A stretch of 64,000 bases of DNA from Patescibacteria group bacterium (GCA_038064515.1 JBBTSY010000005.1:50093-114092), one strand, 5' to 3'. Positions 4,191-63,719 are shown, counted from the first letter of the stretch. The notes: generated by a model from the sequence alone, not told the origin. Made by a program: numbers and translations.

Positions 4191-4191
4191 A

Positions 4192-12133: not shown

Positions 12134-12349
12134 ATCTAATCCTTTTTGATCCCCACGCTTTCGTGATTGACCGTCAGTTGAGCACTAGCAAGCTGCCTTC
12201 GCTTTTGGTGTTCCGTGCAATATCAATGGATTTCACCCCTACACTGCACGTTCCGCTTGCCTCTTACCCACTCTAGTCGTGCCGTTTCCAACGCGGTCCC
12301 GAAGTTAAGCCTCGGGATTTAACATCAGACTAGCACAACCGGATGCTCA

Positions 12350-12382
<33 letters not shown>

Positions 12383-22000: not shown

Positions 22001-25000
22001 TAATTCAAAGTTAGTAGAGACGGAAACACCGCCATTGAAGGTAGCTAAGCCAGTATTGGTGAAGGTCAGAGCAGCAGTAACGGGACCATTTAAGGCAATG
22101 GCGCCTGTGCCAGTGGTAAAGGTGGAAGCACCAGCTTGGGTAAAGTTACCAGATATGGAGGCAGCACCGCCCACTTCCAGGGAGGTGTCAGTGCTGCCAC
22201 CGGGATTGATGCCTAAACGGAAGTTACCGGTTAATTCAAGGTTTGCCCCGACTGACGCTCCTGCAGAGAATGTTTGTAGTCCAGTGAAGGTGTTGGCTCC
22301 TAAGATGGCTAAGGTACCCGCGGTGGGTAGCGTCACCGATGTGACGCCGCTCACCGTTAATGTGGTAGCAAAGTTGCCCGATATGGTTAGGGTAGAAGCA
22401 GCATTGTTGGCTACACCCGTGCCACCGAAAGCAGGAGTAATAACGCTGCCGTTCCAGGTGCCGGTCGTAATAACACCGGTATTAGGAGTGATAACGAGGC
22501 CATTGTAGCCTGTAGCACCTGTGACAGCGCCACTCAAGGTAACAGCGCCAGAAATGGAAGCCGTACCTCCGATTTCAAGAGTCTGGTTGGTATTAATTAC
22601 GTTGATGCCTAACCTGGTATTGCCAGTTAATTCAAAGTTGGTGGAGACGGAAACACCGCCGGAGAAGGTAGCGAGGCCGTTTGCGGTGAGTCCTGATGTA
22701 GCAGTAATGAGTCCCGAGATCGTCGGTGTTGCCGTCCAAGATGTGGGCGAAATAGTAAGTCCGGAACCTGCAATGGTCGTTCCCGTTGACGCATTACCGA
22801 AGGTAATTGCGCTGTCTCCGGAATAAACTGTCGCTTTCACCGTGCCACCAGCCGCCTCAAACGTGCCTGAAACAGATGCTCTGCCAGTAAGGGAGATGAG
22901 GCCATTGGTCGCATCGAAGGTAATTCTGTTGGCCTGGCCAGAATCCCTGATGTCATTGCCGGATACCTCGATATCGTCGTTGAAGTCGACGAAACCGGTG
23001 GCCAGGTTGAGGCGAGAGGCGCCTGTGGAGTCCTGGATATCATTGCCATTGATGCGAATGTCATCGGAGATAGAGGCTAGGCCTACTACTTCTAAGGCTA
23101 CGGAGAGATTTGATGTGTTCACGCCGATACCGGTGGTGTTGACGAAGAAGTCAGAGGTACCTACTTCGAAGTTCGAAGAGACAGAAGCATTAGCAAGGGT
23201 GGTTTGGCCCGTAACATCGAGGGTAGATGAGAGGGTTGTAGCCCCAGAAACGCCAAGTGTAGAGCCAAATGTCGCCACTCCTGAGATACTCGCAGTGCCG
23301 CCGACTTCTAACCGAGCACTCGTGATTGGGCCCGCATTGATGCCCAAGTTGCCGGTAGTGATCTCAAAGCCGGTGGAAGAAGAAGCACCGCCGGAGAAGG
23401 TGGCAAGACCGGTGGTAGTGAGCGTAGAAGCAAAGGTTGCGTCATCTTGCACATCCAAGGTGCCGGCTGAGTTCAGGGTGAGGTTTCCGCTCGTGGTGCC
23501 GATGGTGGTGGTGTCCAGCGTGATGTTGTCAAAGGTGAATAGGCCGGCATCCGTGATGGTGAGGTAAGTCGTGCCGCCACGCTTCACAATGAAGTCTCCG
23601 GTGGAGTCCAGATCAACCAATAGGCCAGTCGCACCGCCGGAAAGCGATGCCCCAGAGCGGAATTCCCAAAGGGAGGTGATGGTTTCTGCCGCATTGACAT
23701 GCGCAACATTCACCGAAAGCGCCGCATCGTTCACGCTTCCTCCAGAACCTACGGTTAAAGTATCCGAAACCTCGTCATCAGCCCACGGGTTGGCGATGTT
23801 TACCCAGTTGCCCGCAATAGTTTCAGCTTCGGAGAGCGATGCGGGTCCTGCGGCTCCCCAATCTAATCGGACCAGTGCTTCTGTTCCCGAAAAGGAAACG
23901 GCAAATGAACCGCCTTCAAAGGATACGGAAGAAACATTCGTGCCGCTTCCGCTGAATCCCTCGCGTACCTCAATTAAGGCCCCGCCCCCTCCTCCTGCGT
24001 CGTCATCCGTACATGAGAAAAGCCCAGTTTCTCCGCTCCAATTCAATGCTTTGTTGCCGGCACCTGCATCGCAGTCAGTGAGGCCTGCACCGAATAATGC
24101 GGAGACAGATGCTGTGCCAATCTCAAGGGCATTGGCAAACTGGCCAGATGCCGCAGTGAATCTCCAGAGACCGGTAATCTGCTCATTAGCTGCCCGTGAC
24201 GCGGGACCGTTGGTCCAGTCAAGGCGCACAATCGATTCAGTTGAACCTGAAGCAGCCAGCGTAAACATATTACCTTCAAAATTGAGCGTTGTTGCTGCGG
24301 CGAGATTCTGGGTGCCTCCTTCTTCGGTTTTAACGCCTGATCCTCCGCCGCCCCCATCTGCCAGACATGAGAACCGTCCCGTTGACGAGCTCCAATTCAG
24401 AGTTTGGGATTCATCACTGCAATTGGTAAGCCCCGCGCCGAAGAGAGAAGAAGCAGAGGCATAGCCGACCACTTCAAAGTTCAACGATGCAGTAGCGTTG
24501 TTTGATATGAGGATACGACCAGAATCAACGGCCAAGGTGCCGAATTTGCCCGTAGTGGCTTCAAAGAATGATCCGGAGGCGTTCACCAGCGAGAGGTTAT
24601 CCGCAAGCGTCAAGGTTGGGTTTCCGCTCACCCCATTGCCGTTGGAAACATCAATTTTGTTCGTCGTGCCGGTGATTGTCCGGGCGGCGAATGAATTAGA
24701 TCCTGTAACCGTGAGGAGGCCATTCGATCCGCCAGTTCCCGCAAGTGCGGTTAAGGTAGCATCTAATGGCTGAAGTCCGGATACATTAAGCGTATTCGTA
24801 GACCATGAGAGGTTCGTGCCTGCAGTAATTCTCGTTGAAGGCGTATCTCTGAATAATTCCCACGCTGTCTGCGACGCGGTCAGTGGCATAGTAAACCCCG
24901 TATCAGCACCGAATGTATTGCCTGACCATGCAAAACCAGTTCCTGCTGTGATGCGCGTACTTGGAATATCGCGGAATGTTTCCCAGTTGCTTGTTGATGC

Positions 25001-28000
25001 GGTGAGAGGAATGTTAAATCCAGCCATAAGCGTGATGGCATCTCCGGAAAGCGCTAGGCCGGTAGCCGTTACGCTAAGATTCGTCATGCCAGAAATATTC
25101 ACTGAAGCGCATGTAAGGGTATCCCCAATCGTTGTGACGAACTGGTTAGTGCATCCGGTTGGATAGTTCTGCAATCCGGTCCAATTAATAGTGATGGCAT
25201 CAGCAATGGATGCATCGGTGAGAGGCGTACCAAGAGTCAATATTGAGATTGACGCAGTCCCGATTTCAAGCGTATTCGTAAATTGGTTCGATGCGGCAGT
25301 GAATCGCCATGCTCCTGCAATAGTTTGATCAGCCGACCGTGAAGCAGGTCCACCTGAACCCCAATCAAGATTGATTCGCGCTTCGATGGATCCCGAAGCA
25401 GCGAGTGTGAATTTTCCGCCGTCAAAATTTAATATCGTTGTCGTGGAAAGTATCTGCGCACCGCTTTCCTCAGTCTTAAACTCCGCTCCGCCCGCTCCGC
25501 CCGCATCAGCTCCGCATGAGAATCTTCCCGTGGTCGAATTCCATAGAAGATTCTGCGATTCGGCACTGCAATCAGTTGCGGGAAACGCGGAACCAAAGAG
25601 CGCCGACACTGATGCATTATTACGGAACTCCCATGCTCCCGTCACCGTTTCATTGAGCGAGAGTGACGCGCCACCGCCACTGATGGTCGTCCATGTAAGA
25701 ACACCGTTTCCGTCAGTCGACAAAGCTTGATTTGCCGTGCCATCGGCTCCTGGCCATGTATAGCTTACGTTTCCAAGCTTCAGCGCCGCGGGCAACTCCA
25801 GCACGCCGGACGTCGCGGTGATTGCATTTCCATCAATTCGAACGTTATCGACAGTAAGTACCGAACTGCTTAGCCCTACTTGATGGTTATTGCCGGTATA
25901 CTGCAATGGAAACGGAACCCTCTGCTGTAACGACAAGAGCGATCCTTTGATCGCATCGAGTTCTTCTCGGACGCTGTTGGACACAGGAGGAGCGTTTACC
26001 GTAATTGCACTTCCTACATAGCGCCTTATGAGAGTATTTAATTCATTGATCTGACGCTGGGAGAATGTTGCGGATGCCGATGGCGTCGGAGTGCCCGCCG
26101 GAGAAGGAGTGGGTGTCGGCCGACGCCGCCCGAGAGGGAACAGCCGCGGGAGTGCCGCAGTGGTCTGGTTGGATGCTCGCAGGATCGAAGGAGACTTTAT
26201 TGAAGCGATTGGTGCTGGAGCTTTTGATTTTCGAAAAGATGCGAAAAGTGTCGAAAGCGAAGCTTGCTGGGACCAAAAGGTCCGATGGGAAGCATACGTT
26301 TGGTCTGCCAGCGTACCGACCTTTCCTTGGACGATATTCCTGAATGATAGTGCTAAGCGGCCAAAGCCCAACGAGAATTGCTGGGTCTGGGATGGAAGAA
26401 CGGGCCGCGCCAAGGGAGCTGTCTTAAAATGCGTAATGCCTTCGTTCAAAGATCTCCATCCCTCTTCTGCTACTGATTCAAATCCTTGAACCTGCGGACC
26501 CGCAAGAGTTCTTTTGCCAAATGAGTGCGGATCCTTGATGGCGATGCGGGTTTTAGTGGTTCCTCGGTTTGTCCATGCGGTATGAATCTGCCATGCGGTT
26601 CCCCCTAATCCCCGATCAACGGCTTTGACCAGAATGGCCATGCCGCGGTCGATGGGGTTGAGGAAGTAGCCGTTGAATGCTTCAAGCTGTGCGAGAAGCG
26701 AGCCCCGCTCCTTAACCGGCAAAGGCAGAGTCATATCTGGCGTTTTTACTACATACGAGAGAATTCCCAGCTGTTCAGATGCACGGAGAATAGGGGGAGG
26801 AATTGCTGCTGGCCGTGCCGGAGTTCGACGAGGTATAGCAGCGATACCAGCGGTTTTCGATTGCTGTTGGAGAAAAATTTTATGGGCCACATACGTATTA
26901 TCAGCAATAGAACCGATGCGATGAACCAATATATCAGTCGCCCATCCAAGCAGATTTTCAACGGGATTATCTACATTGAGAGAGAATGAGACCTGGCTCG
27001 GCTCTCGGCGCGGCATCTGAGGTCCAGACATGAATGCAATCTGGTTTTTTGCGATACCCTTTCGCATGCCGCCTTCAATATCTTTAACGGCGGTATGTGC
27101 AAAAGATTCAAAATCTCCAACACGAGGATACGCCAATTTTTCCTTTCCAAACATCTGCGGATCTTTGATAGCGATTGGGCGAGGATCGCGGTTTGGTATC
27201 CACGACAATACTTGAGGAATATAATTCGATCCCGTAGCAAGCTCTTGATCGACGGTGCGGACAAGAGCGCTCATCGCACGGTCGATGGGGTTGAGGAAGT
27301 AGCCGTTGAATCCTTCAAGCTGTGCGAGAAGCGGTTTCCATGTATATGCTTGAACCGTTGCACCTTTCGTCAGCGGCAAAGGAATCGGAATGTCCGCTTC
27401 TTGCACGAATGCCATCAGAGGTTCTGCAAATGCTTGTCTCGATCGCTCGAGATCATTTGAAAAATCAGAATGCTTTGCCGGAAGTAATTCAGGAACATGA
27501 GCATTCTGTTTGCTCACCTCGTGAGCGCTGGCACTCCAGAAAATGAAAAGGGCAAGGAGGATAAGCCCCAAACCACGTGGTGATGGTCTCAGGTTTATCC
27601 TACTTGCCCGAATTCGTTCGGCTATGTGGAAAAGAGCTAGTGAAGGAACTGTTATGGGCTTTCGAAGAAGGCCGTTCTCCGGAACCTCTTTAGAGATCTG
27701 GACACTTTCAAACGCGCGTACTCGTCGTTGGATCTCTGTCACTTTTTTATACGCTTCCAACGAACCGCGCGATACGAACCATCGCTTGTCTTCCCGTATG
27801 CTCCTCACCCGTCCTTGGCGCGCTAACCGTCCGATGTGATCAGCATCGTATCCGAACTCCTGCGCCAAGACTGAGGTAGCAGCATAGGTTTCTCCTCCAA
27901 CTTCTCGCACCGACGATTCACTCGTGGGACTCTTCTCGTCTTGGGCGAGCTGGGCGGAAGCGGCGGTTTGCTTTTTGATTGTATCTGATCCCTGCAAGGT

Positions 28001-28003
28001 CAC
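19058..28003 (-). CDS. Giant (2981 aa) single-pass membrane-anchored surface protein with multiple internal repeat families
   Basis: An uninterrupted 8.9-kb ORF. There is a TM helix at about aa 144-160 (GLGLILLALFIFWSAS). Two tandem ~200-aa repeats follow, each with LAQLE(G/A)FNGYFLNPIDR. Next come at least five ~100-aa modules carrying a conserved Cys pair and an LDW(T/S)NGPASR motif, then numerous T/G/S-rich ...TGLATFSGGVSVSTNFELTGNTRLGIN... repeats. The C-terminus is a PT/E-rich linker. Confidence 0.8.
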   Translation of the reverse strand: MTLQGSDTIKKQTAASAQLAQDEKSPTSESSVREVGGETYAATSVLAQEFGYDADHIGRLARQGRVRSIREDKRWFVSRGSLEAYKKVTEIQRRVRAFESVQISKEVPENGLLRKPITVPSLALFHIAERIRASRINLRPSPRGLGLILLALFIFWSASAHEVSKQNAHVPELLPAKHSDFSNDLERSRQAFAEPLMAFVQEADIPIPLPLTKGATVQAYTWKPLLAQLEGFNGYFLNPIDRAMSALVRTVDQELATGSNYIPQVLSWIPNRDPRPIAIKDPQMFGKEKLAYPRVGDFESFAHTAVKDIEGGMRKGIAKNQIAFMSGPQMPRREPSQVSFSLNVDNPVENLLGWATDILVHRIGSIADNTYVAHKIFLQQQSKTAGIAAIPRRTPARPAAIPPPILRASEQLGILSYVVKTPDMTLPLPVKERGSLLAQLEAFNGYFLNPIDRGMAILVKAVDRGLGGTAWQIHTAWTNRGTTKTRIAIKDPHSFGKRTLAGPQVQGFESVAEEGWRSLNEGITHFKTAPLARPVLPSQTQQFSLGFGRLALSFRNIVQGKVGTLADQTYASHRTFWSQQASLSTLFASFRKSKAPAPIASIKSPSILRASNQTTAALPRLFPLGRRRPTPTPSPAGTPTPSASATFSQRQINELNTLIRRYVGSAITVNAPPVSNSVREELDAIKGSLLSLQQRVPFPLQYTGNNHQVGLSSSVLTVDNVRIDGNAITATSGVLELPAALKLGNVSYTWPGADGTANQALSTDGNGVLTWTTISGGGASLSLNETVTGAWEFRNNASVSALFGSAFPATDCSAESQNLLWNSTTGRFSCGADAGGAGGAEFKTEESGAQILSTTTILNFDGGKFTLAASGSIEARINLDWGSGGPASRSADQTIAGAWRFTAASNQFTNTLEIGTASISILTLGTPLTDASIADAITINWTGLQNYPTGCTNQFVTTIGDTLTCASVNISGMTNLSVTATGLALSGDAITLMAGFNIPLTASTSNWETFRDIPSTRITAGTGFAWSGNTFGADTGFTMPLTASQTAWELFRDTPSTRITAGTNLSWSTNTLNVSGLQPLDATLTALAGTGGSNGLLTVTGSNSFAARTITGTTNKIDVSNGNGVSGNPTLTLADNLSLVNASGSFFEATTGKFGTLAVDSGRILISNNATASLNFEVVGYASASSLFGAGLTNCSDESQTLNWSSSTGRFSCLADGGGGGSGVKTEEGGTQNLAAATTLNFEGNMFTLAASGSTESIVRLDWTNGPASRAANEQITGLWRFTAASGQFANALEIGTASVSALFGAGLTDCDAGAGNKALNWSGETGLFSCTDDDAGGGGGALIEVREGFSGSGTNVSSVSFEGGSFAVSFSGTEALVRLDWGAAGPASLSEAETIAGNWVNIANPWADDEVSDTLTVGSGGSVNDAALSVNVAHVNAAETITSLWEFRSGASLSGGATGLLVDLDSTGDFIVKRGGTTYLTITDAGLFTFDNITLDTTTIGTTSGNLTLNSAGTLDVQDDATFASTLTTTGLATFSGGASSSTGFEITTGNLGINAGPITSARLEVGGTASISGVATFGSTLGVSGATTLSSTLDVTGQTTLANASVSSNFEVGTSDFFVNTTGIGVNTSNLSVALEVVGLASISDDIRINGNDIQDSTGASRLNLATGFVDFNDDIEVSGNDIRDSGQANRITFDATNGLISLTGRASVSGTFEAAGGTVKATVYSGDSAITFGNASTGTTIAGSGLTISPTSWTATPTISGLITATSGLTANGLATFSGGVSVSTNFELTGNTRLGINVINTNQTLEIGGTASISGAVTLSGAVTGATGYNGLVITPNTGVITTGTWNGSVITPAFGGTGVANNAASTLTISGNFATTLTVSGVTSVTLPTAGTLAILGANTFTGLQTFSAGASVGANLELTGNFRLGINPGGSTDTSLEVGGAASISGNFTQAGASTFTTGTGAIALNGPVTAALTFTNTGLATFNGGVSVSTNFELTGNTRLGINAGGTTNTNLEVGGTASISGATTFGSTIGVTGATTLSSTLGVTGLATFTNASTSSNFEVVGYASISQFYLQDTDGGTFSDCDGTANKVTYDLTNRKFNCEADQNSGGSSSPKGISVRETGGTFSHIGSLSFESNIFLLSNTASESVIDLDWSNAGAPASRSLANTWTQLQTFTLGASSSANFEVVGNASVSALFGSAFSSIGSNCNTETQTLNWNSTTGKFSCLTDDTGGGSSFSGLDFGLIGGSQVKITSISFEANHFNISNTASEGFVRLDWTNGPASRAFNETITGFWKFTAASTQLTGLELSGFASISINGLDFNLNLKGTGDFIIQDAGTTVFTITDDGKVAFTTNASASVGDFNIFRNSARAFTIQDAGGDDDILQVDTTASASNPGLDINSNVSEFAAGNSALTITVLASSSRQLPHGVLWVQDSNSLTLASMSNAGRLGIRGSINSHAGGSALCTGVSAPNPGCVDYAEAFPTSDSTLTAGEIVSADLASSQYVNRAVPGSLPLGVVSTNPAALITGTKFAYGAEALEHLPPGHVPIALAGRVPVKVSTENGPIKVGDYLTNSATRPGVAMRASKAGRVIGQALENYNDQKNIGTILLFINNTYYSGRIENSGLMSDLGDTQSILTALLKQDPDQEIPSQVVTDLIVANKEIIASRISANNLSIVGLAYLNELRALKIVADEIDSPALELMDNQLAVLANSVYALNSQMALTGEQLMALASNSWNPREDIALNAGLSVEGSAVFNGGLTVDRIGSEGNLVLFNSDVEFFGRPYFNNDTGGFLVVSKGATYASVSFEREYLNQPVVNTTISLNTASASEADEQLLFDSDIRYIVTNKNVKGFTVKLNKPAPFDIQFSWIALAIKDAKTVFSPRPSLEATEGTAIDAIAPSATPSATPEFSLEPTPESTQESTPAPSVTPEPSVEPTLEPVAESTPEPSISVTPEITPIPSISSEPTPEISTEPTL
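26649..26699. repeat. Intragenic near-identical direct repeat, copy 1 (partner at 27277..27333)
   Basis: cgatggggttgaggaagtagccgttgaat(g/c)cttcaagctgtgcgagaagcg occurs twice, ~630 bp apart, inside the giant gene. This matches the tandem protein-domain duplication. Confidence 0.8.
27277..27333. repeat. Intragenic near-identical direct repeat, copy 2
   Basis: The same ~55-bp sequence as at 26649, with 1-2 mismatches. Confidence 0.8.
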
Positions 28004-33560: not shown

Positions 33561-33635
33561 TGGTGCCGGTGGGAAGAGTCGAACTTCCGTTTGATCGTTA
33601 TGAGTGACCCGTTCTAACCGTTGAACTACGCCGGC
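33561..33635 (-). tRNA. tRNA with CAT anticodon (elongator Met or lysidine-modified Ile2), CCA encoded
   Basis: The sequence GCCGGCG-TA-GTTC-AACGGTTA-GAAC-G-GGTCA-CTCATAA-CGATC-AAAC-GGAAG-TTCGACT-CTTCC-CACCGGC-A-CCA folds as a cloverleaf. It lacks the three G-C pairs expected in an initiator anticodon stem. Confidence 0.8.
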
Positions 33636-33741
33636 GCATCATATATAAAGCACCTGAATTCTACATGAAAGCTCGGGTTTTTTCAATAAATACAGCTTGC
33701 CAGTAATAATCTAATAGGATATAATCACTAGGTCATTATAT

Positions 33742-33812
33742 CGCGGGGTAGAGAAACGGCATCTTGCAGGGCTCATAACCCTGAGTTCCGGGTTCGAATC
33801 CCGGCCCCGCAA
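33742..33812 (+). tRNA. Initiator tRNA-fMet (CAT)
   Basis: CGCGGGG-TA-GAGA-AACGGCA-TCTT-G-CAGGG-CTCATAA-CCCTG-AGTT-CCGGG-TTCGAAT-CCCGG-CCCCGCA-A. The C1:A72 mismatch and three consecutive G-C pairs in the anticodon stem are the bacterial initiator hallmarks. Confidence 0.85.
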
Positions 33813-33816
33813 CATT

Positions 33817-40465: not shown

Positions 40466-41227
40466 TTAGGCGGCCTGCTTCGCATCCGCCACCGAAACCA
40501 CCTCACGAGCGCGGATGTAGTCGCTGCAGCGCTCGACACCGCTCCAGCGCACGCGGAGCCTGCCGTGGGCGCTGTCCCAGTCCACGCCCGGGACGCTGCC
40601 GTCCGAGTGCCGCGATCCGGAGCAAAGCGTGTAGTTCTTGATGTCCAGATGGCCGCTCGTCTTGTAGTGGAACCACAGTTCCAGAAGCAGGCGCTCCAAG
40701 AGAGTCATCGTCGTGATGTCCCGCTCGGCGATCTTCTTGGCCGAGAGGTTCTTGAGCTCCTCGTCAGCTTCGACGCGAGGACGGCACCAGATGATGTACG
40801 GAGCATCTTTGACGGTTCGCTCGTCCTTGTCCTTGGGGACGGCCTTGTCCAGGGACTGGTCGGTGTACTTCCATCCACGCAAGCGCTCGACGCACTTGTC
40901 GAATGCCTGCTGGACGGAGATACCGGGAATCACCGCGACGCCCCAGCCGAAGCTGGAACGCACGGGAGGAAGTGAAACATGCGACAAGTCCACGACTACC
41001 CCGAAGACATCCGTGTAGAACTTCGTCCAGTCCGCCAAGAACGCGGCCGTGTCCAGGCCCGAGGCGTAGGTAACGCCGCCGTTGGCCCAGCCGTCATGGC
41101 TGATCTGCTGGGCTTTGTCCACCAGTATGAGCTCGCCGGACATGAAGCGCTTGGCGCGCTCCTGGCCGCCGATCTTGTTCCCAAGGTCCATGACCTGCTT
41201 GAGGGTCAGTCCATCAAAGTCGCTCAT
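40466..41227 (-). CDS. DGR target protein, C-terminal C-type-lectin/FGE-like variable domain
   Basis: 253 aa. The C-terminal LCSGSRHSDGSVPGVDWDSAHGRLRVRWSGVERCSDYIRAREV is encoded by VR. An AAGGAG SD lies 7 nt before the ATG. The gene is GC-rich relative to the rest of the window. Confidence 0.8.
   Translation of the reverse strand: MSDFDGLTLKQVMDLGNKIGGQERAKRFMSGELILVDKAQQISHDGWANGGVTYASGLDTAAFLADWTKFYTDVFGVVVDLSHVSLPPVRSSFGWGVAVIPGISVQQAFDKCVERLRGWKYTDQSLDKAVPKDKDERTVKDAPYIIWCRPRVEADEELKNLSAKKIAERDITTMTLLERLLLELWFHYKTSGHLDIKNYTLCSGSRHSDGSVPGVDWDSAHGRLRVRWSGVERCSDYIRAREVVSVADAKQAA
40499..40623 (-). repeat. DGR variable repeat (VR) at 3' end of target gene
   Basis: A ~125-bp copy of TR with substitutions only at TR-adenine positions. 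It lies within the last ~45 codons of ORF 40466..41227. A GC-rich inverted repeat (ggcggatgcgaagcaggccgcc) lies just 3' of it, an IMH/hairpin-like element. Confidence 0.9.
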
Positions 41228-54764: not shown

Positions 54765-54856
54765 GGAGACGTGTCAGAGTGGTCTAATGAGCCTCTTTGC
54801 TAAAGAGGTGGGGGCTTTAACTCCCCCCGGAGGTTCGAATCCTCCCGTCTCCGCCA
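54765..54856 (+). tRNA. tRNA-Ser (GCT), type II with long variable arm, CCA encoded
   Basis: GGAGACG...CCTCT-TTGCTAA-AGAGG-TGGGGGCTTTAACTCCCCCC-GGAGG-TTCGAAT-CCTCC-CGTCTCC-G-CCA. Confidence 0.9.
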
Positions 54857-54911
54857 GATGTCCAAGTTCGAACCGAGGTAGAATAAGGGTTCTTGGACTA
54901 AAATAAAGATT

Positions 54912-55751
54912 ATGCCAAAGTTATTAACTAAAAAAGAAGCTGTTGAATTTCTTGGTCTTGATGACAAGGTTTTTGATAACTACTTCAAAAATGCGGCTGA
55001 ATTTCCATGCATCGATAGGGACGGCGGCAGAGGTCGTTTTTACTTTGACGAAAATGTCCTACGAAAATGGAAGGATAGTTTAGCGTGGAGAACCGTTGAT
55101 CTGAATAAAGACGACTATGCCCTGTGTTTAGATTTTGCACTAGCACAACACTTTCGTAATTATGTGCAGTCAGATTTTGGCACTGGACGACAAAGAGAGT
55201 TTGGGCAAAAAATAACAAACTGGGTCAAGGGACAGCTTGGAGAGGTTGCAGTAAAGAAATTTCTGAAGCGAGAGTTTAATGTAGATATTGAACTTGATTT
55301 TGATATTCGCGATAAAATCGTTTTGCAAGACATTACAGCTGTCAAGGAGAATGGAAAAATGAGAACGCCAAAAATAGGCGTTGGTATAAAATCGTCTAAA
55401 CCAAAAAGCGCTTTCTTGGTACTCGGAGAAAATGAGATAAGGATAAAGGAGCGCAGATCAGATGTTTACATCTATTGTCGCCCTGATATTCCCGATGATC
55501 ATCTTTTAAGGTTAACGAAAGAGGAAGTAAACGAAGCCGTAAAAAATAAACCTCATTATTCCAAATACAAAGATTTAATGCCGGATTTCGTAAATATACC
55601 CTGTGAAGTTGTGGGTTGGTGTCACTATTCTGAATTAAGAGAAACAAAACAAATCCCCGGACAAGAATTTGATGGTATCCGATTTGTTAAAGAATCTGGA
55701 CTTTTAAAGAAAACGAAGAAGGACTGGCAAGAGCTTATAAAGCAACTGTAG
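54912..55751 (+). CDS. Hypothetical protein, candidate type II restriction endonuclease (by position only)
   Basis: Convergent with the adjacent C5-MTase, with the stops overlapping. It has an N-terminal HTH-like segment and acidic clusters (DIELDFDIRDK). No confident catalytic motif was found. Confidence 0.3.
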   Translation: MPKLLTKKEAVEFLGLDDKVFDNYFKNAAEFPCIDRDGGRGRFYFDENVLRKWKDSLAWRTVDLNKDDYALCLDFALAQHFRNYVQSDFGTGRQREFGQKITNWVKGQLGEVAVKKFLKREFNVDIELDFDIRDKIVLQDITAVKENGKMRTPKIGVGIKSSKPKSAFLVLGENEIRIKERRSDVYIYCRPDIPDDHLLRLTKEEVNEAVKNKPHYSKYKDLMPDFVNIPCEVVGWCHYSELRETKQIPGQEFDGIRFVKESGLLKKTKKDWQELIKQL

Positions 55752-56880
55752 CGCCGACTTCTATTTCATCAAATAAACTTACTATCTCTCGTGCGCTAGC
55801 TTCTCCGTTGGTAAGTTTCGATTCCACGAACTCGTAGGGAATCCCTGCGAAAGTTTTTAGCACTGCAGAAATAACGGCTTGTGCTCCAACTGGAGGCACG
55901 GCCATACCGATTTGTTTTCTCGCGCTTTCTTTGGAGCCTTCGAATATAAAGCTATCGGGGAAAGATTGCAATCGTGCTCGTTCTCGGTTTGTAAGAGCGC
56001 GATGTTCTGACCAGTGATAAACATGCGTTCCACCCCCTCCGCTTCCGGTGATTGTATAGGCGGGTTTTTTAGGATCTAATCGTTTATAGATTTGACTCAT
56101 TCGAGCACCTTTCACGTTTAGTCTTAAGTGTTGAGGTATCCCCTCATACCAAGCATTTTCTCCGGCTGGGATATGCTTCAGCCGCTCAACAACACCTGCG
56201 GATTGCTTGGTAAGTTCGTGATTTTGCGCGTCATCTGATATTCGCGGGTTTTCGATAGCTTCGCGCGCACTCACATAGTTATTCCTTGAAGTCGGAGCGG
56301 GAACTTTGAATCTCAATCCCAAATCTTTTCTTATGCCTATAATGACAATACGATGTCTTTGTTGTGGTACTCCGTATTCTTCAAACTTATATAAGTGAGG
56401 GGTAAGAACATAGCCCCTGCCCGCCTCGCCCAGGTCTTTTAAAATTTGTTTAAAAGCGTTTCCACCATTTGCACTCTGTAAGCCGCTAACATTTTCTGCG
56501 ATGAACCATTTTGGATTATGCGTATTTATAGCCCTGACCCCATGAGAGTAGAGAGGACCAAATTTTCCATCAAATCCTTTTTGTTCCCCAACAACACTAA
56601 AGTCATTACAAGGAAATCCAAAAGCGAGCACATCAAACTTTGGCACCTTTTTAAAGTCTATTTCTCTGACATCTGCGCAAACAACCCCTTTCTCATTTCC
56701 GTTATGGATATTACGAGCGTATGTTTTGCAAGTATCCGCATCGTAATCGTTCGCCCAAACTGGCTCAATGCTATATATGCTGTCTTTATTTTCAGCAAAA
56801 GATCGGATGGCTCCAAGAGCAAGGCCACCGGGTCCGGAGAATAATTCTGCTAATTTAAATTTAATTTCTTTTTTCTTCAT
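55735..56880 (-). CDS. dcm: DNA (cytosine-5)-methyltransferase
   Basis: Motif I FSGPGGLALG, motif IV GFPCNDFSVVG and the ENV motif are all present. Length is 381 aa. Confidence 0.9.
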   Translation of the reverse strand: MKKKEIKFKLAELFSGPGGLALGAIRSFAENKDSIYSIEPVWANDYDADTCKTYARNIHNGNEKGVVCADVREIDFKKVPKFDVLAFGFPCNDFSVVGEQKGFDGKFGPLYSHGVRAINTHNPKWFIAENVSGLQSANGGNAFKQILKDLGEAGRGYVLTPHLYKFEEYGVPQQRHRIVIIGIRKDLGLRFKVPAPTSRNNYVSAREAIENPRISDDAQNHELTKQSAGVVERLKHIPAGENAWYEGIPQHLRLNVKGARMSQIYKRLDPKKPAYTITGSGGGGTHVYHWSEHRALTNRERARLQSFPDSFIFEGSKESARKQIGMAVPPVGAQAVISAVLKTFAGIPYEFVESKLTNGEASAREIVSLFDEIEVGATVAL

Positions 56881-56906
56881 AAATTCTCAATTTATTTTAC
56901 CATTTA

Positions 56907-57530
56907 TTAAAATTCTCGCCTAAGCACACCCACAACCCTACCTTGTATTTCAACATTCTTTTCATAAAATGGCTTCATATATTTGTTTGCCGGGACAAGT
57001 TTTATTCGCCTTTTCTCTCTATAAATTTTCTTGAGAGTAACTGCGTTTTTATCGGGCAAATAAGCAACTGCTTTTTCTCCATCATTAACCGCTTGTTGTT
57101 CACGAACAATAACAATATCGCCGTCTGATATGCCCTCCTCAATCATACTTGTTCCGGAAACTTTTAAAGCGTAATAATTTGCACCTCTCGAAAGCATACT
57201 GCGCGGTACTTCTATTGGTTCGGGGTTTCTGATTGCCTCAATCGGCCCTCCAGCGGCAATAAGTCCCATGAGCGGGATTTCTACCAAGTCTCTTTTCTGA
57301 TCGTTGAATGCTTGAATCGAACGCCTTTTACCTTTATCCGCAGAAAGTAAATTTTTCTTTCGTAGATAGGAAATGTGTTGGTGAATTGTCGGGATAGAAA
57401 CCCCAAAATTATCGGCTATCTCGCCAAGAGAGGGAGAGTAGCTCTTTTCTCTTTGAAATTTTGTAACGAATTGCAAGATTTCTGCTTGCCGCTTTGAGGG
57501 CTTACCTGCTCCAACTGGCTTCTTTTCCAT
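56907..57530 (-). CDS. LexA/CI-like S24-peptidase repressor (N-terminal HTH)
   Basis: The C-terminal region has the Ser (VSGTSM) and Lys (VTLKKIY) of an S24 autopeptidase dyad. The gene is immediately upstream of and co-oriented with dcm. Confidence 0.7.
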   Translation of the reverse strand: MEKKPVGAGKPSKRQAEILQFVTKFQREKSYSPSLGEIADNFGVSIPTIHQHISYLRKKNLLSADKGKRRSIQAFNDQKRDLVEIPLMGLIAAGGPIEAIRNPEPIEVPRSMLSRGANYYALKVSGTSMIEEGISDGDIVIVREQQAVNDGEKAVAYLPDKNAVTLKKIYREKRRIKLVPANKYMKPFYEKNVEIQGRVVGVLRREF

Positions 57531-57583
57531 ATCTAAATTATAATACCTAAAGATAACCTAAACAAGAGAAGTTATCCCCAACC

Positions 57584-59029
57584 ATGAAAACAGGAAGAAA
57601 TGACCAGTGCCCCTGCGAAAGTGGCAAAAAATATAAAAAGTGTTGTTTAGAGAAAGATGAGAAAAGAACAAAACTAAAACAACGAGTTATGAGAATAAGC
57701 CGTCGCGATTTTATTTCGGGCCCATATAGGAATTGTCCAAATCCGCAGTGTTTAGCAGAAAATTCTTTTGGTGTCTTTACGCCAATTTCTGAATCGAGGT
57801 CATATTCGAGAGAGTGTATTAAATGTTGGCATAAAGAACATTTTGGATTACCGAGAATTAAAAAGAAAATCGTGTATCTGGATCAATTTGTCATTAGTAA
57901 CTTAGTTAAGTTGTTGGACAAATCATGTCCGAGTCACCAAAAAATAAAAGCTGATCCATTTTGGGAGTCTTTATTCATAAAACTCGAAAAGGCCTCTAAG
58001 CTCCAAGCCATAGTTTGTCCCGATAGCTTCTATCACAGAGATGAATCAATGACGGGAGGTGTTGAGTTTAAATTAATGAAAAGGTTGTATGAACATTTTT
58101 CAAGCGGCAAAACTCTTTATCCAAGTATCATAATCGAGAAAAATCAAATTACTCATCATTTTGAGTCATGGCTTGATGGTAAAAAAGCCAGCTTTGAATT
58201 TAAGCCGGAAGACATTGCTTTCGAAAAAGATTTACATAGCTGGTCAGTTGGCTTGAGAATTTCAGTAGGCGGTAATCCATACCCCGGACAAGTAGAAGGT
58301 CTCCATAAGACGAATGAAACAACTCGTGAACAGCTGAAAGATGTTTGGACAAGGTGGCAAAATGAAAAAGAAGTTGGATTTGTCGAGCGTATCAAAGAAG
58401 AAACATCAGGGCTTTGGAAAGGTCTAATTAGCGCGGCAAGACAATTTGCTATGAGGAGAAACAATGCAATGACAAAGATGGCGGCAGGTGAGAATTATGA
58501 AATGGATTTGGATGATTTTTTGCCACCGATGTCCAACGACATAATAGAAACTCTCACGAGGATTGCTCAAGCTAAAGGACTACAAGGTAATCAGATTCCC
58601 GAGTCAATTGTGAGTTACTTTGGTAACATAGATTCTTTGCTTGAAATACCACAAATTAGAATAAGCTCCGTAATGTTTGCGGGGTGGGCACACAGAGCGG
58701 CAAATGGCAAAAAGAATCCTCCTAAATCTACAGCAGACGTACAATTTATCTCAAGCTATTTGCCGTACTGCGATGCACTATTTGTGGATAAAGAGTCAGC
58801 GATACTTCTCAGAGAATTTCCAAAAGGTACACCGTCAAAATTTAGGTTGGCAGAGTTCAATGCTCACATCTTCTCTCTCGCGAATAAAAAACAGTTTTTG
58901 GATTACCTCGATCAATTGGTTGCGGATATTCCAGCAGAGCAAATGGAAATATTAAAAGATATGGAAGGAGAGGATTATGGAAAGCCATATTGGAGTATAA
59001 TTGAGCATGAGAAACGGGAGAGGGTATGA
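57584..59029 (+). CDS. SEC-C-motif zinc-binding protein with a large uncharacterised C-terminal domain
   Basis: The N-terminal CPCESGKKYKKCC is a SEC-C metal-binding motif. A second Cys4 ribbon (CPNPQC...CIKC) follows. The remaining ~400 aa show no recognisable motif. Confidence 0.5.
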   Translation: MKTGRNDQCPCESGKKYKKCCLEKDEKRTKLKQRVMRISRRDFISGPYRNCPNPQCLAENSFGVFTPISESRSYSRECIKCWHKEHFGLPRIKKKIVYLDQFVISNLVKLLDKSCPSHQKIKADPFWESLFIKLEKASKLQAIVCPDSFYHRDESMTGGVEFKLMKRLYEHFSSGKTLYPSIIIEKNQITHHFESWLDGKKASFEFKPEDIAFEKDLHSWSVGLRISVGGNPYPGQVEGLHKTNETTREQLKDVWTRWQNEKEVGFVERIKEETSGLWKGLISAARQFAMRRNNAMTKMAAGENYEMDLDDFLPPMSNDIIETLTRIAQAKGLQGNQIPESIVSYFGNIDSLLEIPQIRISSVMFAGWAHRAANGKKNPPKSTADVQFISSYLPYCDALFVDKESAILLREFPKGTPSKFRLAEFNAHIFSLANKKQFLDYLDQLVADIPAEQMEILKDMEGEDYGKPYWSIIEHEKRERV

Positions 59030-59033
59030 GTTT

Positions 59034-59267
59034 TTAAATCGAATAATCAACTGCATTTTTCCCTTTATCGGATTTTGGTTTAGGAACCTCAAACCATTCC
59101 GGATGTTCTTTGTGCATATGCCTCAAATTCTTTATAATTGGATCAAGAGTCCAGAAAGTTAGCCTTCTATAAGCCGTTTTAGGTTCTAACTTCGGGACAT
59201 CGTCCCCGCCAAAATCACATCTCGAAAAATCAAGATATGAAAAAAAATAAACAAGTGTTTCTACCAA
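59034..59267 (-). CDS. Small hypothetical protein
   Basis: The ORF is the only evidence. Confidence 0.25.
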   Translation of the reverse strand: MVETLVYFFSYLDFSRCDFGGDDVPKLEPKTAYRRLTFWTLDPIIKNLRHMHKEHPEWFEVPKPKSDKGKNAVDYSI

Positions 59268-59422
59268 AATGGATGCGGTGGTTTTTTATGCCGTTATTTG
59301 TTGGTATTTGGGGATTGGTTACCTATCTCGAATTTTTCAGCCCTGCCAACAGAAATGAGTTAGGATTTATTGGATATCTTGGCATGAGTGTCCTTTTCTT
59401 GGGCCTGGCACTTGTCCTGTGA
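59237..59422 (+). CDS. Small membrane protein (2 TM)
   Basis: Hydrophobic. The ORF is the only evidence. Confidence 0.25.
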   Translation: MKKNKQVFLPKWMRWFFMPLFVGIWGLVTYLEFFSPANRNELGFIGYLGMSVLFLGLALVL

Positions 59423-59740
59423 TTTATGTCAAGCGGAAAACTGCCGGCATATGTTATTGAAGAAGAGGAGTAAAAAGCTATGAATGGTGTTATAATCAGC
59501 ACGTACTAACTAATGCAACATATTGTGAAAAAGTATCTTGTATGGGCTCTAGTTATACTAATATTGGGTGGAGGGGTGTGGATGGTTGCAAACAGTGAGG
59601 TTCTTCGGACTAAAGCCGCCGATCTTTGGCCCGATTAAGGGAGACTCGATATCATAGCTCTTAGCGCAATTACCGCAAATATTTTCAAACACAGACATCA
59701 CTCTAGATGTGATTGAGCCCATCGCAACGCGATGGGCTCT

Positions 59741-60766
59741 TCAGGCGATAGACGCCTCCTTTCTTTCACTACGATAAAAGATCTCAAAGACGACGTGGTC
59801 TTTGTGCGCATCTTGCGGACGAAGTCCACTGATGTCACGGAGTTGGATCCCGGCCAAACGCTCCTCTGGCCCGGAGCACACCGTACGAATGAGCTTGCGC
59901 TCCTGCGTTTCGCCGCCTGACCAGCCCGTTATGCGAGCAACGATCTCGGCAAGCTGGTAGTTAAACCGGATTTTCCGGTAAACCCCCCTGAACAACTGGG
60001 CAGAAAGCAGTTCCACCAACATGTAGGGCTGCCAAGTACGCCTGCCCTTCTTGGGGCAACGGGCCTTGAGCTCCTCGATGAGCCACGCCACATCTTTGCG
60101 CCTTTCAAAGAAGAGCCGCTCGTTTTTGTACTGTGACATGATCTTGTCGATGAACCGAGCAAAAGCTAGATGCGGGTCACGACCATGAAACTGGAGCCAG
60201 TACGCGTCGGCAAGTAGGTGCCGGTCCCTTCGTGCGACGCTGAAACGGACACCCGCGGGAACTGGTCGGAGTCCGCTCTCTTCATTGAGTCCGCTCTTCT
60301 TGTAAAAGCGCACCCGGTTCATCTTAAGAAAAAACGGATTGCTAGGTCCGCACTTGCGGCCTAGCACCATACTGTTCGCCCGTTGTTGAAGAATCTGGAA
60401 GATCCGAGCCGAGAGCCGTGCGTAGTCTTTGTGGCTCAAGTGGCAAAGCGGGTAGCGTGCACCATGCCAGCGACCATTGCACGCCTCATGGTACGGAATT
60501 CCCTTTCCCAACCCCACCTCTAGGAGCACCGCATCGGAAAAATGCGTCTGCCCGGACTGTCCGGGACCGATTACCGCCAGGACATTCAACGATGGCCGAG
60601 GGTTGAAGTGTTCTCGGACACCGTCCGGCAACACCTCCAATACCACTGCGGCATGTTGACGAACACGCTCTGCATCGCGAGCAATGATCTGGGGAACGTC
60701 TTCCTGCCGCCGTCGGAACAGCATCAAAGAACTCACCTCACTTTCGACCTCACCCGGAGGTCCCAC
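59741..60766 (-). CDS. Arg-rich hypothetical protein, GC-rich gene
   Basis: 341 aa with no recognisable catalytic motif. A perfect 11-bp hairpin (gagcccatcgc-aacg-gcgatgggctc) immediately follows the stop. GC content is clearly above the window average. Confidence 0.45.
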   Translation of the reverse strand: MGPPGEVESEVSSLMLFRRRQEDVPQIIARDAERVRQHAAVVLEVLPDGVREHFNPRPSLNVLAVIGPGQSGQTHFSDAVLLEVGLGKGIPYHEACNGRWHGARYPLCHLSHKDYARLSARIFQILQQRANSMVLGRKCGPSNPFFLKMNRVRFYKKSGLNEESGLRPVPAGVRFSVARRDRHLLADAYWLQFHGRDPHLAFARFIDKIMSQYKNERLFFERRKDVAWLIEELKARCPKKGRRTWQPYMLVELLSAQLFRGVYRKIRFNYQLAEIVARITGWSGGETQERKLIRTVCSGPEERLAGIQLRDISGLRPQDAHKDHVVFEIFYRSERKEASIA

Positions 60767-60856
60767 TACTTGCTATAATGATTCATTAAAAATGTTCGAG
60801 CAAGGCGCTGTGTTCATAAAAAGTTGAAAGCCGCCGTTCGGTACGTCGAACGACGG

Positions 60857-62128
60857 CTATTTCCTGTTGTTTTTCCTATTTTGTGGCAGTCCGTTCACCA
60901 CGGACACATTCGGAAGCATCGCGTGAGGATACATCACCCTACGTAGGAGTAGAAGCATCCCAAATGCGTAGAATGGGGCGCTCGGAATCGCCATGCTACA
61001 CAGATGAGACAACGGGCACACACGCGCCACATCAGCATAGCGTGACGGCCAGAGTCCGGGATTGGCTTCCAAAACTTCTGGGTAAAGCAACTTGATGTTC
61101 CGACGCGACTGGCGGGTCTCCTTCCGGCCTCTCCCCCTACTTCTGGTTTGGAGTTCGCGAGGGCACAATTCACGGCTGAGCACCCACAAGGCCGGGTTGA
61201 TCGCAAGGTGGGAAAACCCGTGCTTGACCATGAAGGGCTGTGACCACAAGGCGATCGTGTCAGTAATGCGCTCTGTCACACGAACGATATTCCTGCCATT
61301 AAAGTCAGCCGGGTGGATTTTCTTTCCTTGGAACGGTTGGAGATCTTCCGGCTCCACGACACCGGTTGCAAAAAGCGCACGTTGAGCGTGAAAGTCCACT
61401 GGGATCGGTGCTGGAAAGACGGGAATGAGCCCCTTCTCCTGAAGCCAGATGGTGAACAGCGAGAAGATCTTCCGACGTATGCCTATGAAGGAACGTAGGC
61501 CCTTGTTGATCTTATTCTTGTAGTCGATCCGGGCATACGCTTGTTCGAAATCTGTAACTCCCGCAAAGATGTTGAGCGTGTTGCCTCCCCAGCGCTCAGC
61601 GAGCGTGACGGAGTTGTGGTACCAGGAAGCCGCAAACTCATCGAGCTTGTAGAGATCCTCGTTCTTGCCACTCTTTTTCTTTTTGCGAGGCTTCGTAAGC
61701 TTGAAAAGAGCCGTTTGCTCTGGCTCGGGCACCCAACTCCTTCGTTCTGTAACCACCAGCTTGATGACTTCCTCTATCTTCTTGGGCATCCAACGAGAGG
61801 CAACCGCAAGCGGATCGAAGAGATCTGGATGTTTCACGCAGAGGTGGTTCACCCACTTAAAGGGGTCTTCGCTCACAACTCCCCCGCGCTGGGTGATGGC
61901 CGCATACATGAAGTAGTTGGCTGCCTGTATCGGATCTTCCGGAATCGGCCAGCGATCTTGAGGAAGTTTGATTCCTTCGAACACGCTAGCCTTGCGTTCC
62001 CAGAAGTCTTGCAAGATGGTAAAGAGCTGGACTGCACGTTCTTCGTTGAACCGAAGCTTCATGGACTCACCTTCTTTCGTTCGGTTTGAGAACGTAGCCA
62101 GCGTAACAGGCAATTTTAAATGATACAA
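60857..62128 (-). CDS. Hypothetical protein, GC-rich gene (true start possibly at internal MKLRFNEER)
   Basis: 423 aa and unrecognised. It is co-oriented with and upstream of the 341-aa ORF. Confidence 0.45.
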   Translation of the reverse strand: MYHLKLPVTLATFSNRTKEGESMKLRFNEERAVQLFTILQDFWERKASVFEGIKLPQDRWPIPEDPIQAANYFMYAAITQRGGVVSEDPFKWVNHLCVKHPDLFDPLAVASRWMPKKIEEVIKLVVTERRSWVPEPEQTALFKLTKPRKKKKSGKNEDLYKLDEFAASWYHNSVTLAERWGGNTLNIFAGVTDFEQAYARIDYKNKINKGLRSFIGIRRKIFSLFTIWLQEKGLIPVFPAPIPVDFHAQRALFATGVVEPEDLQPFQGKKIHPADFNGRNIVRVTERITDTIALWSQPFMVKHGFSHLAINPALWVLSRELCPRELQTRSRGRGRKETRQSRRNIKLLYPEVLEANPGLWPSRYADVARVCPLSHLCSMAIPSAPFYAFGMLLLLRRVMYPHAMLPNVSVVNGLPQNRKNNRK

Positions 62129-62162
62129 GGTACCTAATTCAGGTTGCCAGACCGCATAAATC

Positions 62163-63719
62163 GTGGTAGATTTCTTTGGTTCTATGGCACTTGAAGAAGC
62201 CCAAAATCAGGAAAAACAGCTTCGACCACCGGTGGTGGTTGTTTTGGGTCACGTGGACCATGGCAAAACCGCGCTTCTCGACACAATCCGCAAAACTAAT
62301 GTCGCCGGCAAGGAGTCGGGCAGTATCACCCAACATATCGGCGCCTACCAAGCCGAGATTAATGGAAGAAAGATCACGTTTCTCGATACGCCTGGCCATG
62401 AAGCATTTAGCGCCATTCGCTCTCGCGGAGCAAAAGTCGCCGATATAGCAATTTTGGTTGTCGCCGCCGACGAAGGCGTAAAGCCTCAAACAAAGGAAGC
62501 CATTCACATCATTAAAGAAACGAAGATCCCCGTCATCGTTGCTATCAATAAAATAGATAAGGCAGAAGCTAATCCCCAAAAGGTTCGTCAGGATTTGGCA
62601 GTTGAAGAGATCCTCGTCGAGGACTGGGGCGGCACCGTGCCCATAGTTGAGGTCTCGGCTAAAACGGGAAAAAATATCTCTGAACTCCTAGACATGATCC
62701 TGCTCGTTGCCGACATTGAAGAACTTTTGAGCGATCCCTCCGGTCCTACTAAAGGTATTATTATTGAATCAAGTCTCGATAAACGGCGCGGTTACGTTGC
62801 TACGGCATTAATCCAAGAAGGTACATTGCGCGTCGGCGACTGGATTGTCGTAGGAACTATAGTAGGCAAAGTGAAATCGATGGAAAGCTATGACGGTAAA
62901 GCTATGACTCAAGCAATTCCGTCCGATCCGGTACTCCTCACCGGCTGGTCGGAAACTCCCCACATCGGCAAACAGCTGAACGTGGCGACATCCAAGGCCG
63001 AAGCTGAAACACTGGCCGAAGACAACGTTGATCTCGCTCCCCTTCTTCTCTTTATGGGCTCCGAGCCTGCCGCCCAGAATCCCAACAAGAAAATTTTTAA
63101 TGTTGTTATTAAATCAGATGTATCAAGCTCGCTTGAAGCTATCGATTCTGCCCTAAAGACCATACAATCCGACGATGTCGGCTTTAATGTTCTTGATTAC
63201 AGCATTGGCAACATCACCGAAGGCGATGTTAAAGTGGCATCAAGCACCAAGGCCGCAATTCTCGGCTTTCGCGTTAGCGTGGAAGACTCGGCAAAGCGGA
63301 TAGCTGAAAAGCGTGGCATTAAAATCACGACTTACGACATCATCTATGAAATGATCGCTCGAGTGCGCGATGATATGTCGGAACTTTTGGAGCCGGAGGT
63401 CAAGCGCAATGCTCTTGGTAAGCTCCGCGTATTGGCAATTTTTAAAAAAGACAGCAAGTCCATCGTTTGCGGTGGCAAAGTTACCTCTGGCAAAGTCATC
63501 CGTGGCGCTCTCATAGATGTTATGCGCGGCAAGGATCTCGTCATGAGCGGCCGCTTGGCCCAGCTCCAACAGAACAAGCAGGACGTCATCGAGGTCAACG
63601 AAGGTCTTGAGGCGGGTATCCGGTTTGATATCGTCAAGAGCGCAACTCCGTCCTCGGAAATCAAAGAAGGTGATATATTAGAAGTGTACGAAGAAGAGAA
63701 AGTGCAAAGAAGTTTATAA
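62163..63719 (+). CDS. infB: Translation initiation factor IF-2 (short form lacking the long N-terminal region)
   Basis: The G-domain [22 protein letters not shown] and NKID motifs are present. Length is 518 aa. Confidence 0.9.

Follow-up and report, generated by a model that had tools for sequence, protein, structure and literature searches.

Islets that insert at tRNA genes and carry type II restriction-modification (R-M) genes have a tRNA gene at one border, are empty or differently filled in relatives of their hosts, are low in GC, turn up as the same cassette in distant lineages and duplicate the 3' end of the tRNA gene. Among DNA glycosylases, an iron-sulfur (Fe-S) cluster is a feature of the Nth/MutY enzymes. 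In the helix-hairpin-helix (HhH) superfamily as a whole the HhH Lys and the HhH Asp are the only two invariant residues, and Qng1, the queuosine-5'-monophosphate glycosylase (DUF2419; PDB 7ugk, 7u07), is metal-independent (PMC9881137). The C-terminal tip of SSB (single-stranded DNA-binding protein), DDDIPF, recruits many genome-maintenance proteins (PMC5872125, PMC3632105). The subject of this report is the interval between tRNA-Ser(GCT) and infB, at 54.86-62.16 kb of a 64,000-nucleotide stretch of DNA (the window) from the metagenome-assembled genome of a Patescibacteria group bacterium (GCA_038064515.1, JBBTSY010000005.1:50093-114092). The exact proteins also occur on a groundwater contig in ENA. 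A first-pass annotation had read this interval as one acquired defence island made up of an R-M pair, a LexA-like repressor, a SEC-C-motif protein, two small open reading frames (ORFs) and a cassette of two GC-rich genes, which we call A and B. All of these genes are present where that annotation had placed them. We think it probable, however, that the interval holds two unrelated features, namely, an acquired R-M islet at tRNA-Ser and an older gene pair, A-B, that is Patescibacteria-wide.

The insertion site at tRNA-Ser

The islet is bordered on the left by its integration target, tRNA-Ser(GCT) (54765-54856, + strand; ARAGORN and Rfam), which is 100% identical in the relative L012. In another relative, L051, whose DNA is about 68-73% identical to the window, the order is infB-A-B-hairpin-tRNA-Ser-comF-pilM. 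The hairpin, which has a perfect 11-bp stem and lies directly 3' of the gene B stop (59715-59739), is 100% conserved in L051 with tRNA-Ser next to it, and this tRNA gene lies 3 nt from the position matching window 59704. L051 thus has the empty site. In the comF/pilM and infB flanks L012 and the window share 92-95% DNA identity, and between the same tRNA-Ser and window 59236, where homology resumes, L012 carries a different cargo of 6 kb with an ABC/FtsX exporter, an HlyD-like protein and an ECF sigma factor. The two small ORFs (59237-59422 and 59513-59638, + strand), which code for predicted membrane peptides of 61 and 41 amino acids (aa), are common to the window and L012 and are absent from L051. 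In a third relative, L003, B has been lost and 875 nt of unrelated sequence stands instead; a 230-aa ORF in this place was considered as a B homologue and rejected because it is unrelated to B. The housekeeping flank, infB (62163-63719, + strand; TIGR00487, 537 bits), is divergent from A and is syntenic with it in L003, L051 and L012.

Comparison with L051, L012 and L003 delimits the cargo specific to the window as 54857 to about 59211. Because L051 is empty, L012 is differently filled and the same R-M cassette lies beside tRNA-Ser in other lineages, the segment 54857-59211 is a true acquired low-GC mosaic islet, inserted at the 3' end of tRNA-Ser(GCT). On the other hand, since L051 has infB-A-B-hairpin-tRNA-Ser, A and B are outside the insertion and are probably ancestral residents of the infB-tRNA-Ser interval. 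The acquired defence island of the first-pass annotation therefore stands for 54.86-59.2 kb and not for the GC-rich pair.

At the right edge of the window-specific cargo, 25 nt before homology to L012 resumes, CGTCcCCGCCA (59201-59211, + strand) repeats 10 of the 11 bases of the tRNA-Ser 3' end and is a candidate attR. The first-pass annotation had found no direct repeat of the tRNA 3' end, a statement to be qualified in view of this imperfect copy. A search of 54.7-62.2 kb for long direct and inverted repeats found none that bracket the islet. Integration would most likely have come about through a recombinase supplied in trans or one that has since been lost, and later recombination between related islets is possible. 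Directly after tRNA-Ser in L012, positions 12437-12537 (reverse strand) resemble the 3' half of another tRNA with T-arm, acceptor end and CCA, which is probably left over from a previous integration at this hot spot. Beyond the end of the window, on the far side of infB and a tRNA-Cys cluster, a LAGLIDADG-like ORF and a tyrosine recombinase of the XerC/D type follow on the source contig (L001 4461-5399, 6271-6939). The recombinase is also found in L051, whereas L012 has a large serine recombinase in that place (207-1931).

The restriction-modification cassette

A leader of 55 nt (54857-54911, + strand) separates the tRNA 3' end from the start of the candidate type II restriction endonuclease (REase) gene, which codes for 279 aa (54912-55751, + strand; PADLOC REase_II PDLC03411, E 7.7e-20). 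The N-terminal segment of this protein is helix-turn-helix (HTH)/excisionase-like (PHROG 668 HTH, 3e-5, residues 1-53), and a sequence search of the PDB found no relative. The C5-methyltransferase (MTase) of 381 aa (55735-56880, - strand) matches PF00145 at 1.2e-74, PADLOC MTase_II at 5e-117 and TIGR00675 at 194 bits, and it matches M.HaeIII and M.HhaI at about 1e-25. The two genes are convergent and their 3' ends overlap by 17 nt. The pair recurs with an overlap of the same length in L133 and L138, both of which have the two genes in full, and in L137, whose contig ends within the MTase. The adjacency of the REase and MTase genes places the pair among the type II R-M systems, which bears out the earlier proposal of a putative REase/C5-MTase pair. 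Judged by family membership, the pair presumably works as a classical defence/addiction module.

Copies of the 279-aa REase that are visibly near-identical, as judged by eye, are present in Taylorbacteria, Ryanbacteria and Uhrbacteria genomes; only the 279-aa members were used for this, because the cluster of 302 members is partly a clustering artefact and its representative is an unrelated membrane protein. At the DNA level the cassette is 84.9% identical to that of L133 (Ryanbacteria) over 54832-56881, 85.0% to that of L136 (Taylorbacteria) and 78.7% to that of L138 (Uhrbacteria), and the MTase is 92% identical in aa to the L133 copy. For the core genes pilM and comF, which the window and L136 both have, blastn gave no match. 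The stretch that is homologous to R-M cassettes from other lineages starts within the last 25 nt of the window tRNA-Ser, and in an alignment the 55-nt leader is nearly identical in the window, L133 and L136; the leader is thus conserved along with the cassette. In L133 the cassette comes directly after tRNA-Ser(CGA). In L136 the order is comF, tRNA-Ser(GCT), 125 nt, a second copy of the tRNA 3' end (about 20 nt), the same 55-nt leader and the cassette. The GC content of the cassette is 0.38-0.41 as against 0.50-0.55 in its hosts, and a scan of viral contigs with the REase gave no match. The core of the islet is a mobile 2-kb R-M cassette that circulates among Patescibacteria and repeatedly lands beside tRNA-Ser.

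The islet is therefore like the known tRNA-targeting islets with type II R-M genes in its tRNA border, its empty or differently filled site in relatives, its low GC and the recurrence of its cassette in distant lineages. The duplicated tRNA 3' end is clear in L136, and in the window it is a 10/11 candidate. It differs from them in that no integrase or other recombinase lies inside, in that a full LexA-type repressor and a SEC-C protein are part of the cargo, and in that the hosts are ultra-small Patescibacteria.

The LexA-type repressor and the SEC-C protein

What lies beyond the MTase varies. It is LexA and SEC-C in the window, ImmA/IrrE and XRE in L133, and a resident Y-family polymerase and an S24 protein in L138. 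The cassette adjoins damage-responsive regulators in three lineages (the window; L133 7993-8887; L138 7557-9680). Since the neighbours in L138 have host-like GC, this association may reflect the insertion site and not co-transfer.

The repressor of 207 aa (56907-57530, - strand), which had been described as S24 LexA-like, passes the TIGR00498 LexA model (155 bits, cut-off 111) and has PF01726 LexA_DNA_bind and PF00717 Peptidase_S24. Its translation, read directly, has IAAGGP as the cleavage-site context, SGTSM with the serine and TLKK with the lysine. It is thus a LexA-type self-cleaving repressor, with a winged-helix DNA-binding domain and an S24 domain that has the Ala-Gly site and the Ser/Lys dyad. 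The gene for the SEC-C-motif protein of 481 aa (57584-59029, + strand; PF02810, 7.7e-9) is divergent from lexA, and the intergenic region of 53 nt holds the palindrome GATAAC-N13-GTTATC (57552-57576), which was read from the sequence and is a candidate operator. Through it LexA would regulate both itself and the divergent SEC-C gene. In the islet the R-M cassette is thus joined to a LexA-type repressor and a divergently transcribed SEC-C protein. The SEC-C zinc-binding motif occupies residues 5-22, and Pfam, NCBIfam and PADLOC recognised no other part of the protein; its matches in the PDB and PADLOC were limited to the motif. Over residues 46-466, the body of the protein shares 26.5% identity (E 3e-33) with a distant homologue, a hypothetical protein encoded in an accessory region of a conjugative Rhizobium plasmid. 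When the protein was used for a metagenome scan the short SEC-C motif dominated the matches and no useful gene context was obtained, and a scan of viral contigs with the body gave no match.

The A-B gene pair

Gene B (59741-60724, - strand) and gene A (60857-62062, - strand) had been called as ORFs of 341 aa and 423 aa. From the family alignments, the 341-aa ORF (GTG at 60766) most likely begins at Met15, which gives 327 aa from ATG, and the 423-aa ORF most likely begins at its own Met23, which gives 401 aa. The NCBI and MGnify calls agree with both lengths. A promoter scan of the region found signals at background level only, and an Rfam scan of the whole window found the 16S rRNA and tRNAs only, with no structured RNA in the GC-rich stretch.

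A-B is one copy of a two-gene module that is conserved across Patescibacteria, mostly in replication/repair neighbourhoods. Of 38 genome loci anchored on A, two are cut by contig ends, which leaves 36 that can be assessed. B is immediately 3' of A in 21 of the 38 (14 tandem and 7 convergent), and some of the tandem pairs overlap or stand 4-14 nt apart. Both arrangements are conserved, which argues for selection on the linkage of A and B. The pairs are found beside infB, beside dnaG-rpoD, beside recO with ligA nearby, beside dnaE and rnhB, and beside ruvA. Where B is not adjacent, the neighbours of A include a ParB-like gene and, once, smc. Recurrent neighbours of A or B that have no connection with DNA are an ABC-F ATPase, DUF2231 and LysE. 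Pairwise distances in the A and B families are correlated (Mantel r 0.59, p 2e-4), and B evolves faster. A third conserved ORF, about 175 aa long and without a Pfam match, comes after B in the lineage that is linked to recO (L009 7202-7735, L021 2824-3543, L036 10505-11017, L037 10898-11410); no counterpart of it was identified in the window, though no search aimed at it was made.

Neither gene had a match in the phage collection, PADLOC or PHROGs, and A had none in the plasmid collection or in the IMG/VR viral contigs; the B family is too divergent for the search patterns that were used on viral contigs. With no PADLOC or PHROG match and with replication/repair genes as neighbours, A-B does not have the marks of a known anti-phage system. 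One clear lateral event was found. In L012, A has been replaced in place by an inverted homologue that is 22% identical and has all four Cys (3640-4776, - strand), while B has been kept with 81% DNA identity.

The composition of the region was the other reason for which A and B had been grouped with the islet. Over 50 long ORFs of the window the mean GC content at third codon positions (GC3) is 0.49 (sd 0.087, median 0.50). The four islet genes have GC3 values of 0.33-0.35 (z -1.6 to -1.8; REase 0.33, LexA 0.35), and A and B have 0.63-0.64 (z +1.6 to +1.7). Tetranucleotide deviation reaches the maximum of the window at 56-59.5 kb (z up to 3.1) and is moderate at 60-62 kb (z 1.5). The compositional break that had been noticed earlier is therefore real and has three levels, namely, the low-GC islet, the high-GC A and B, and the window background. 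Across Patescibacteria, the GC content of A lies above that of the remainder of its locus in 39 of 45 cases, and that of B in 20 of 26. Compared with the mean of the nearest ORFs, GC3 is higher for A in 36 of 43 loci (mean difference +0.074, p 7e-6) and for B in 18 of 23 (mean difference +0.049, p 0.004); these loci (L001-L051) are phylogenetically dependent. A and B show the same GC excess in L051, the relative with the empty site. Since the excess is family-wide and is also present in L051, it is neither a mark of the islet nor a sign of recent arrival. The GC excess is a property of the two families.

Protein A has the marks of an HhH-GPD glycosylase

More than 145 homologues of A were found, all of them in Patescibacteria-type bins, all unnamed and all without Pfam domains. 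Pfam, NCBIfam, PADLOC and PHROG scans gave nothing for either A or B. To that extent the earlier statement that the GC-rich ORFs carry no recognisable motif holds, but not for the predicted structure of A. The AlphaFold2 (AF2) model of A is confident (predicted local distance difference test, pLDDT, 86.8; predicted template modelling score, pTM, 0.87), and it has a two-domain helical fold with a central helix-hairpin-helix, of the HhH-GPD type. The first-pass annotation had said that confident housekeeping homologues of the GC-rich ORFs would speak against its island, and the HhH-GPD glycosylase fold of A goes part of the way to that.

In an alignment of 41 family members, G194, R196, K198 and D223 are invariant and lie in G-M-R-R-K-I-F-S-L ... 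P-I-P-V-D-F-H-A. K198 and D223 occupy the positions of the HhH Lys and Asp, and, like the bifunctional members of the superfamily, A has a Lys in the hairpin and a conserved Asp about 20-25 residues after it; 111 of 120 homologues carry the two motifs. Three Cys, C300, C349 and C355, are invariant, and C-x2-C-x5-C is present in 107 of 119 members. When the A family was aligned with hhalign to E. coli EndoIII, the Cys motif alone aligned, on C194/C197/C203. The spacing is not the C-x6-C-x2-C-x5-C of the Nth/MutY Fe-S loop, because C300 is about 46 residues upstream of the triplet. The C-termini of the A family form a disordered basic tail with the consensus RKxxR[KR]. AGOG was also considered as a relative of A and was rejected because the match in the PDB sequence profile search was at chance level (E = 2, PIPVD motif). 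No relevant paper came out of a literature search that combined Patescibacteria or the candidate phyla radiation (CPR) with HhH-GPD or endonuclease III.

The confident fold, the Lys/Asp pair and the Cys motif together point to A as a divergent family of HhH-GPD proteins that is new and in kind comes nearest to the Fe-S Nth/MutY group. Compared with the Fe-S glycosylases Nth (endonuclease III), MutY and MIG, A has only 11-18% sequence identity and no PF00730 match, exceeds them in length by about 190 residues, having an extension at the N-terminus and a disordered insert at 106-139, and has its first Cys about 46 residues upstream where theirs is 6, with three Cys in the clade of the window. 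In addition, A has gene B as a partner, and no Nth/MutY system is known to have this gene. To Qng1 A is alike in fold alone. It has no sequence match to PF10343, it has a Cys cluster motif, and it is paired with B, whereas Qng1 acts alone as a monomer. It is most likely that A would flip out a damaged or modified base and excise it from DNA using D223 and K198, and AP-lyase (apurinic/apyrimidinic lyase) chemistry through Lys198 is probable.

Protein B has an orphan fold and, in part of the family, an SSB-like tail

B is an orphan family. A word-indexed search found only 7-16 homologues, but with an exhaustive profile search the number rose to 369 representatives, 192 of them at E<=1e-30, and nearly all had lengths of 300-400 aa and aligned end to end. 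For 62 members there was no sequence match in Pfam or the PDB. The AF2 model is confident (pLDDT 84.3, pTM 0.83) and has no known structural relative. Conserved polar residues include N41, E69, Y78, R90, Y101, R160, D167, D173 and R289. The last three residues are [ILVMF]-P-[FYW] in 43 of 150 near-full-length representatives and x-P-F in a further 13 or so, in most cases following a run of acidic residues, as in DDDLPF, EDEIPF and EEEIPF. About a third of the B family thus carries a C-terminal acidic-[I/V/L]PF tail that resembles the tip of SSB. This suggests that the B tail may dock on protein pockets used by SSB and so link A to the replication/repair machinery. B would then be a partner with a novel fold that assists A or couples it to SSB-binding partners. 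The basic tail of A and the acidic tail of B have complementary charges, which may hint at a contact between A and B through the tails.

We also considered a bolder proposal, which at present we regard as rather unlikely. A-B would be an unrecognised base-excision/base-exchange system specific to Patescibacteria, in which the SSB-like tail of B plugs an Fe-S HhH glycosylase into the SSB network of the replication fork and in which the pair could replace canonical components of base excision repair that these reduced genomes lack. The GC excess would then be the footprint of the system's own activity or of repeated lateral replacement.

Alternative explanations

That the whole of 54.86-62.16 kb, A-B included, is one acquired defence island would agree with the tRNA at one border, with a composition that departs from that of the flanks in both directions, low and high, and with A and B having no motif recognised in the Pfam scan. 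It is nevertheless very improbable, because L051 keeps A-B in the same place without the islet, because the pair is conserved in many Patescibacteria in housekeeping neighbourhoods, because PADLOC, PHROG and phage searches gave no matches and A has none in plasmids or IMG/VR, and because the GC excess is seen family-wide. The idea that the two GC-rich ORFs are chance frames in a non-coding or RNA-coding stretch is refuted. GC-rich DNA does carry long ORFs on both strands, but hundreds of full-length homologues with conserved motifs, confident AF2 models and the lack of any Rfam family match in the stretch leave it practically no room. More can be said for A and B being semi-mobile, repeatedly replaced by lateral transfer from GC-richer donors, so that their adjacency reflects co-transfer and not joint function. 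The swap of A in L012 next to a retained B, the GC3 values above those of neighbours (A in 36/43 and B in 18/23 loci) and the varying genomic contexts all favour this. No mobility genes or repeats flank the pair, however, no phage copies were found and for A no plasmid or viral copies, synteny with infB is kept in relatives at 68-95% DNA identity, and the tandem and the convergent arrangements are both conserved. We regard the semi-mobile explanation as possible though on the doubtful side, and it is compatible with two unrelated features in the region. The main competing explanation for A itself is that it is a Qng1-type nucleotide or nucleoside N-glycosylase that salvages a base, for example a 7-deazapurine or some other modified base, for hosts unable to make nucleotides, with B processing the substrate or product. 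This seems unlikely in view of the alignment of CxxCx5C with the EndoIII Fe-S loop where Qng1 needs no metal, the lack of a Pfam DUF2419 match, the frequent replication/repair neighbours and the SSB-like tail in a third of B members.

Several observations weigh against our own interpretation. Of the 36 assessable A loci, 15 are without B within 8 kb, the frequency of replication/repair neighbours is a raw observation, and the Mantel correlation may reflect shared vertical descent alone. The clade of A to which the window belongs has Ala at the first Cys of the triplet and so has three of the four Cys, and none of 41 A members had a Pfam match at E<=10, including PF00730 HhH-GPD and DUF2419. 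B of the window is without the SSB-like tail. An enzymatic activity of A, an Fe-S cluster in it and a contact between A and B are predictions. As for the islet, the repeat at 59201-59211 is weak on its own, and suggestive only, because six 10/11 matches to the tRNA end are present in the window where one is expected. Scans of every ORF of 54857-59700 with Pfam, NCBIfam, PADLOC and PHROG found no recombinase domain, and the earlier remark that an integrase is lacking is thus confirmed. The joint arrival of LexA, the SEC-C protein and the R-M cassette is no more than a possibility, and this too weighs against our reading of the islet. Even so, an acquired R-M islet next to an older and unrelated A-B pair remains the explanation that we consider probable.

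Other observations in the window

The 16S rRNA gene (10412-12883, - strand) is 2472 nt long compared with the model of 1533 nt. About 940 nt are inserted as an rRNA intron or intervening sequence, as is typical of Patescibacteria, and this insertion has inside it a LAGLIDADG_2 homing endonuclease ORF (11204-11953, - strand; Pfam 1e-32). In composition, nothing in the window is a stronger outlier than an ORF of 253 aa at 40466-41227 (- strand), with a GC content of 0.625 and a GC3 of 0.84 (z +4 relative to the genes of the window), for which Pfam gave no match. A giant ORF of 2981 aa (19058-28003, - strand), also without a Pfam match, holds a tetranucleotide outlier at 20.5-24 kb (z up to 2.75) and is adjoined by a glycine-rich ORF of 347 aa (17993-19036). 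Two divergent tRNA-Met(CAT) genes, 107 nt apart, are at 33561-33813.

Conclusions

The islet itself is routine biology, and it is a clean case of an R-M cassette that moves among Patescibacteria lineages and homes to tRNA-Ser; the empty, alternative and filled versions of one tRNA-Ser site are all documented. A-B is a widespread unnamed pair that Pfam does not cover, and it belongs to a large bacterial radiation that is poorly understood. A would add a divergent branch to the HhH-GPD glycosylases, and its predicted catalytic residues, Lys198 and Asp223, give a direct biochemical handle. B is a confidently modelled protein without a structural relative that is tied by gene order to an enzyme of the DNA-repair type. 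If A-B is a repair module, it would help to explain how DNA is maintained in organisms with very small genomes.

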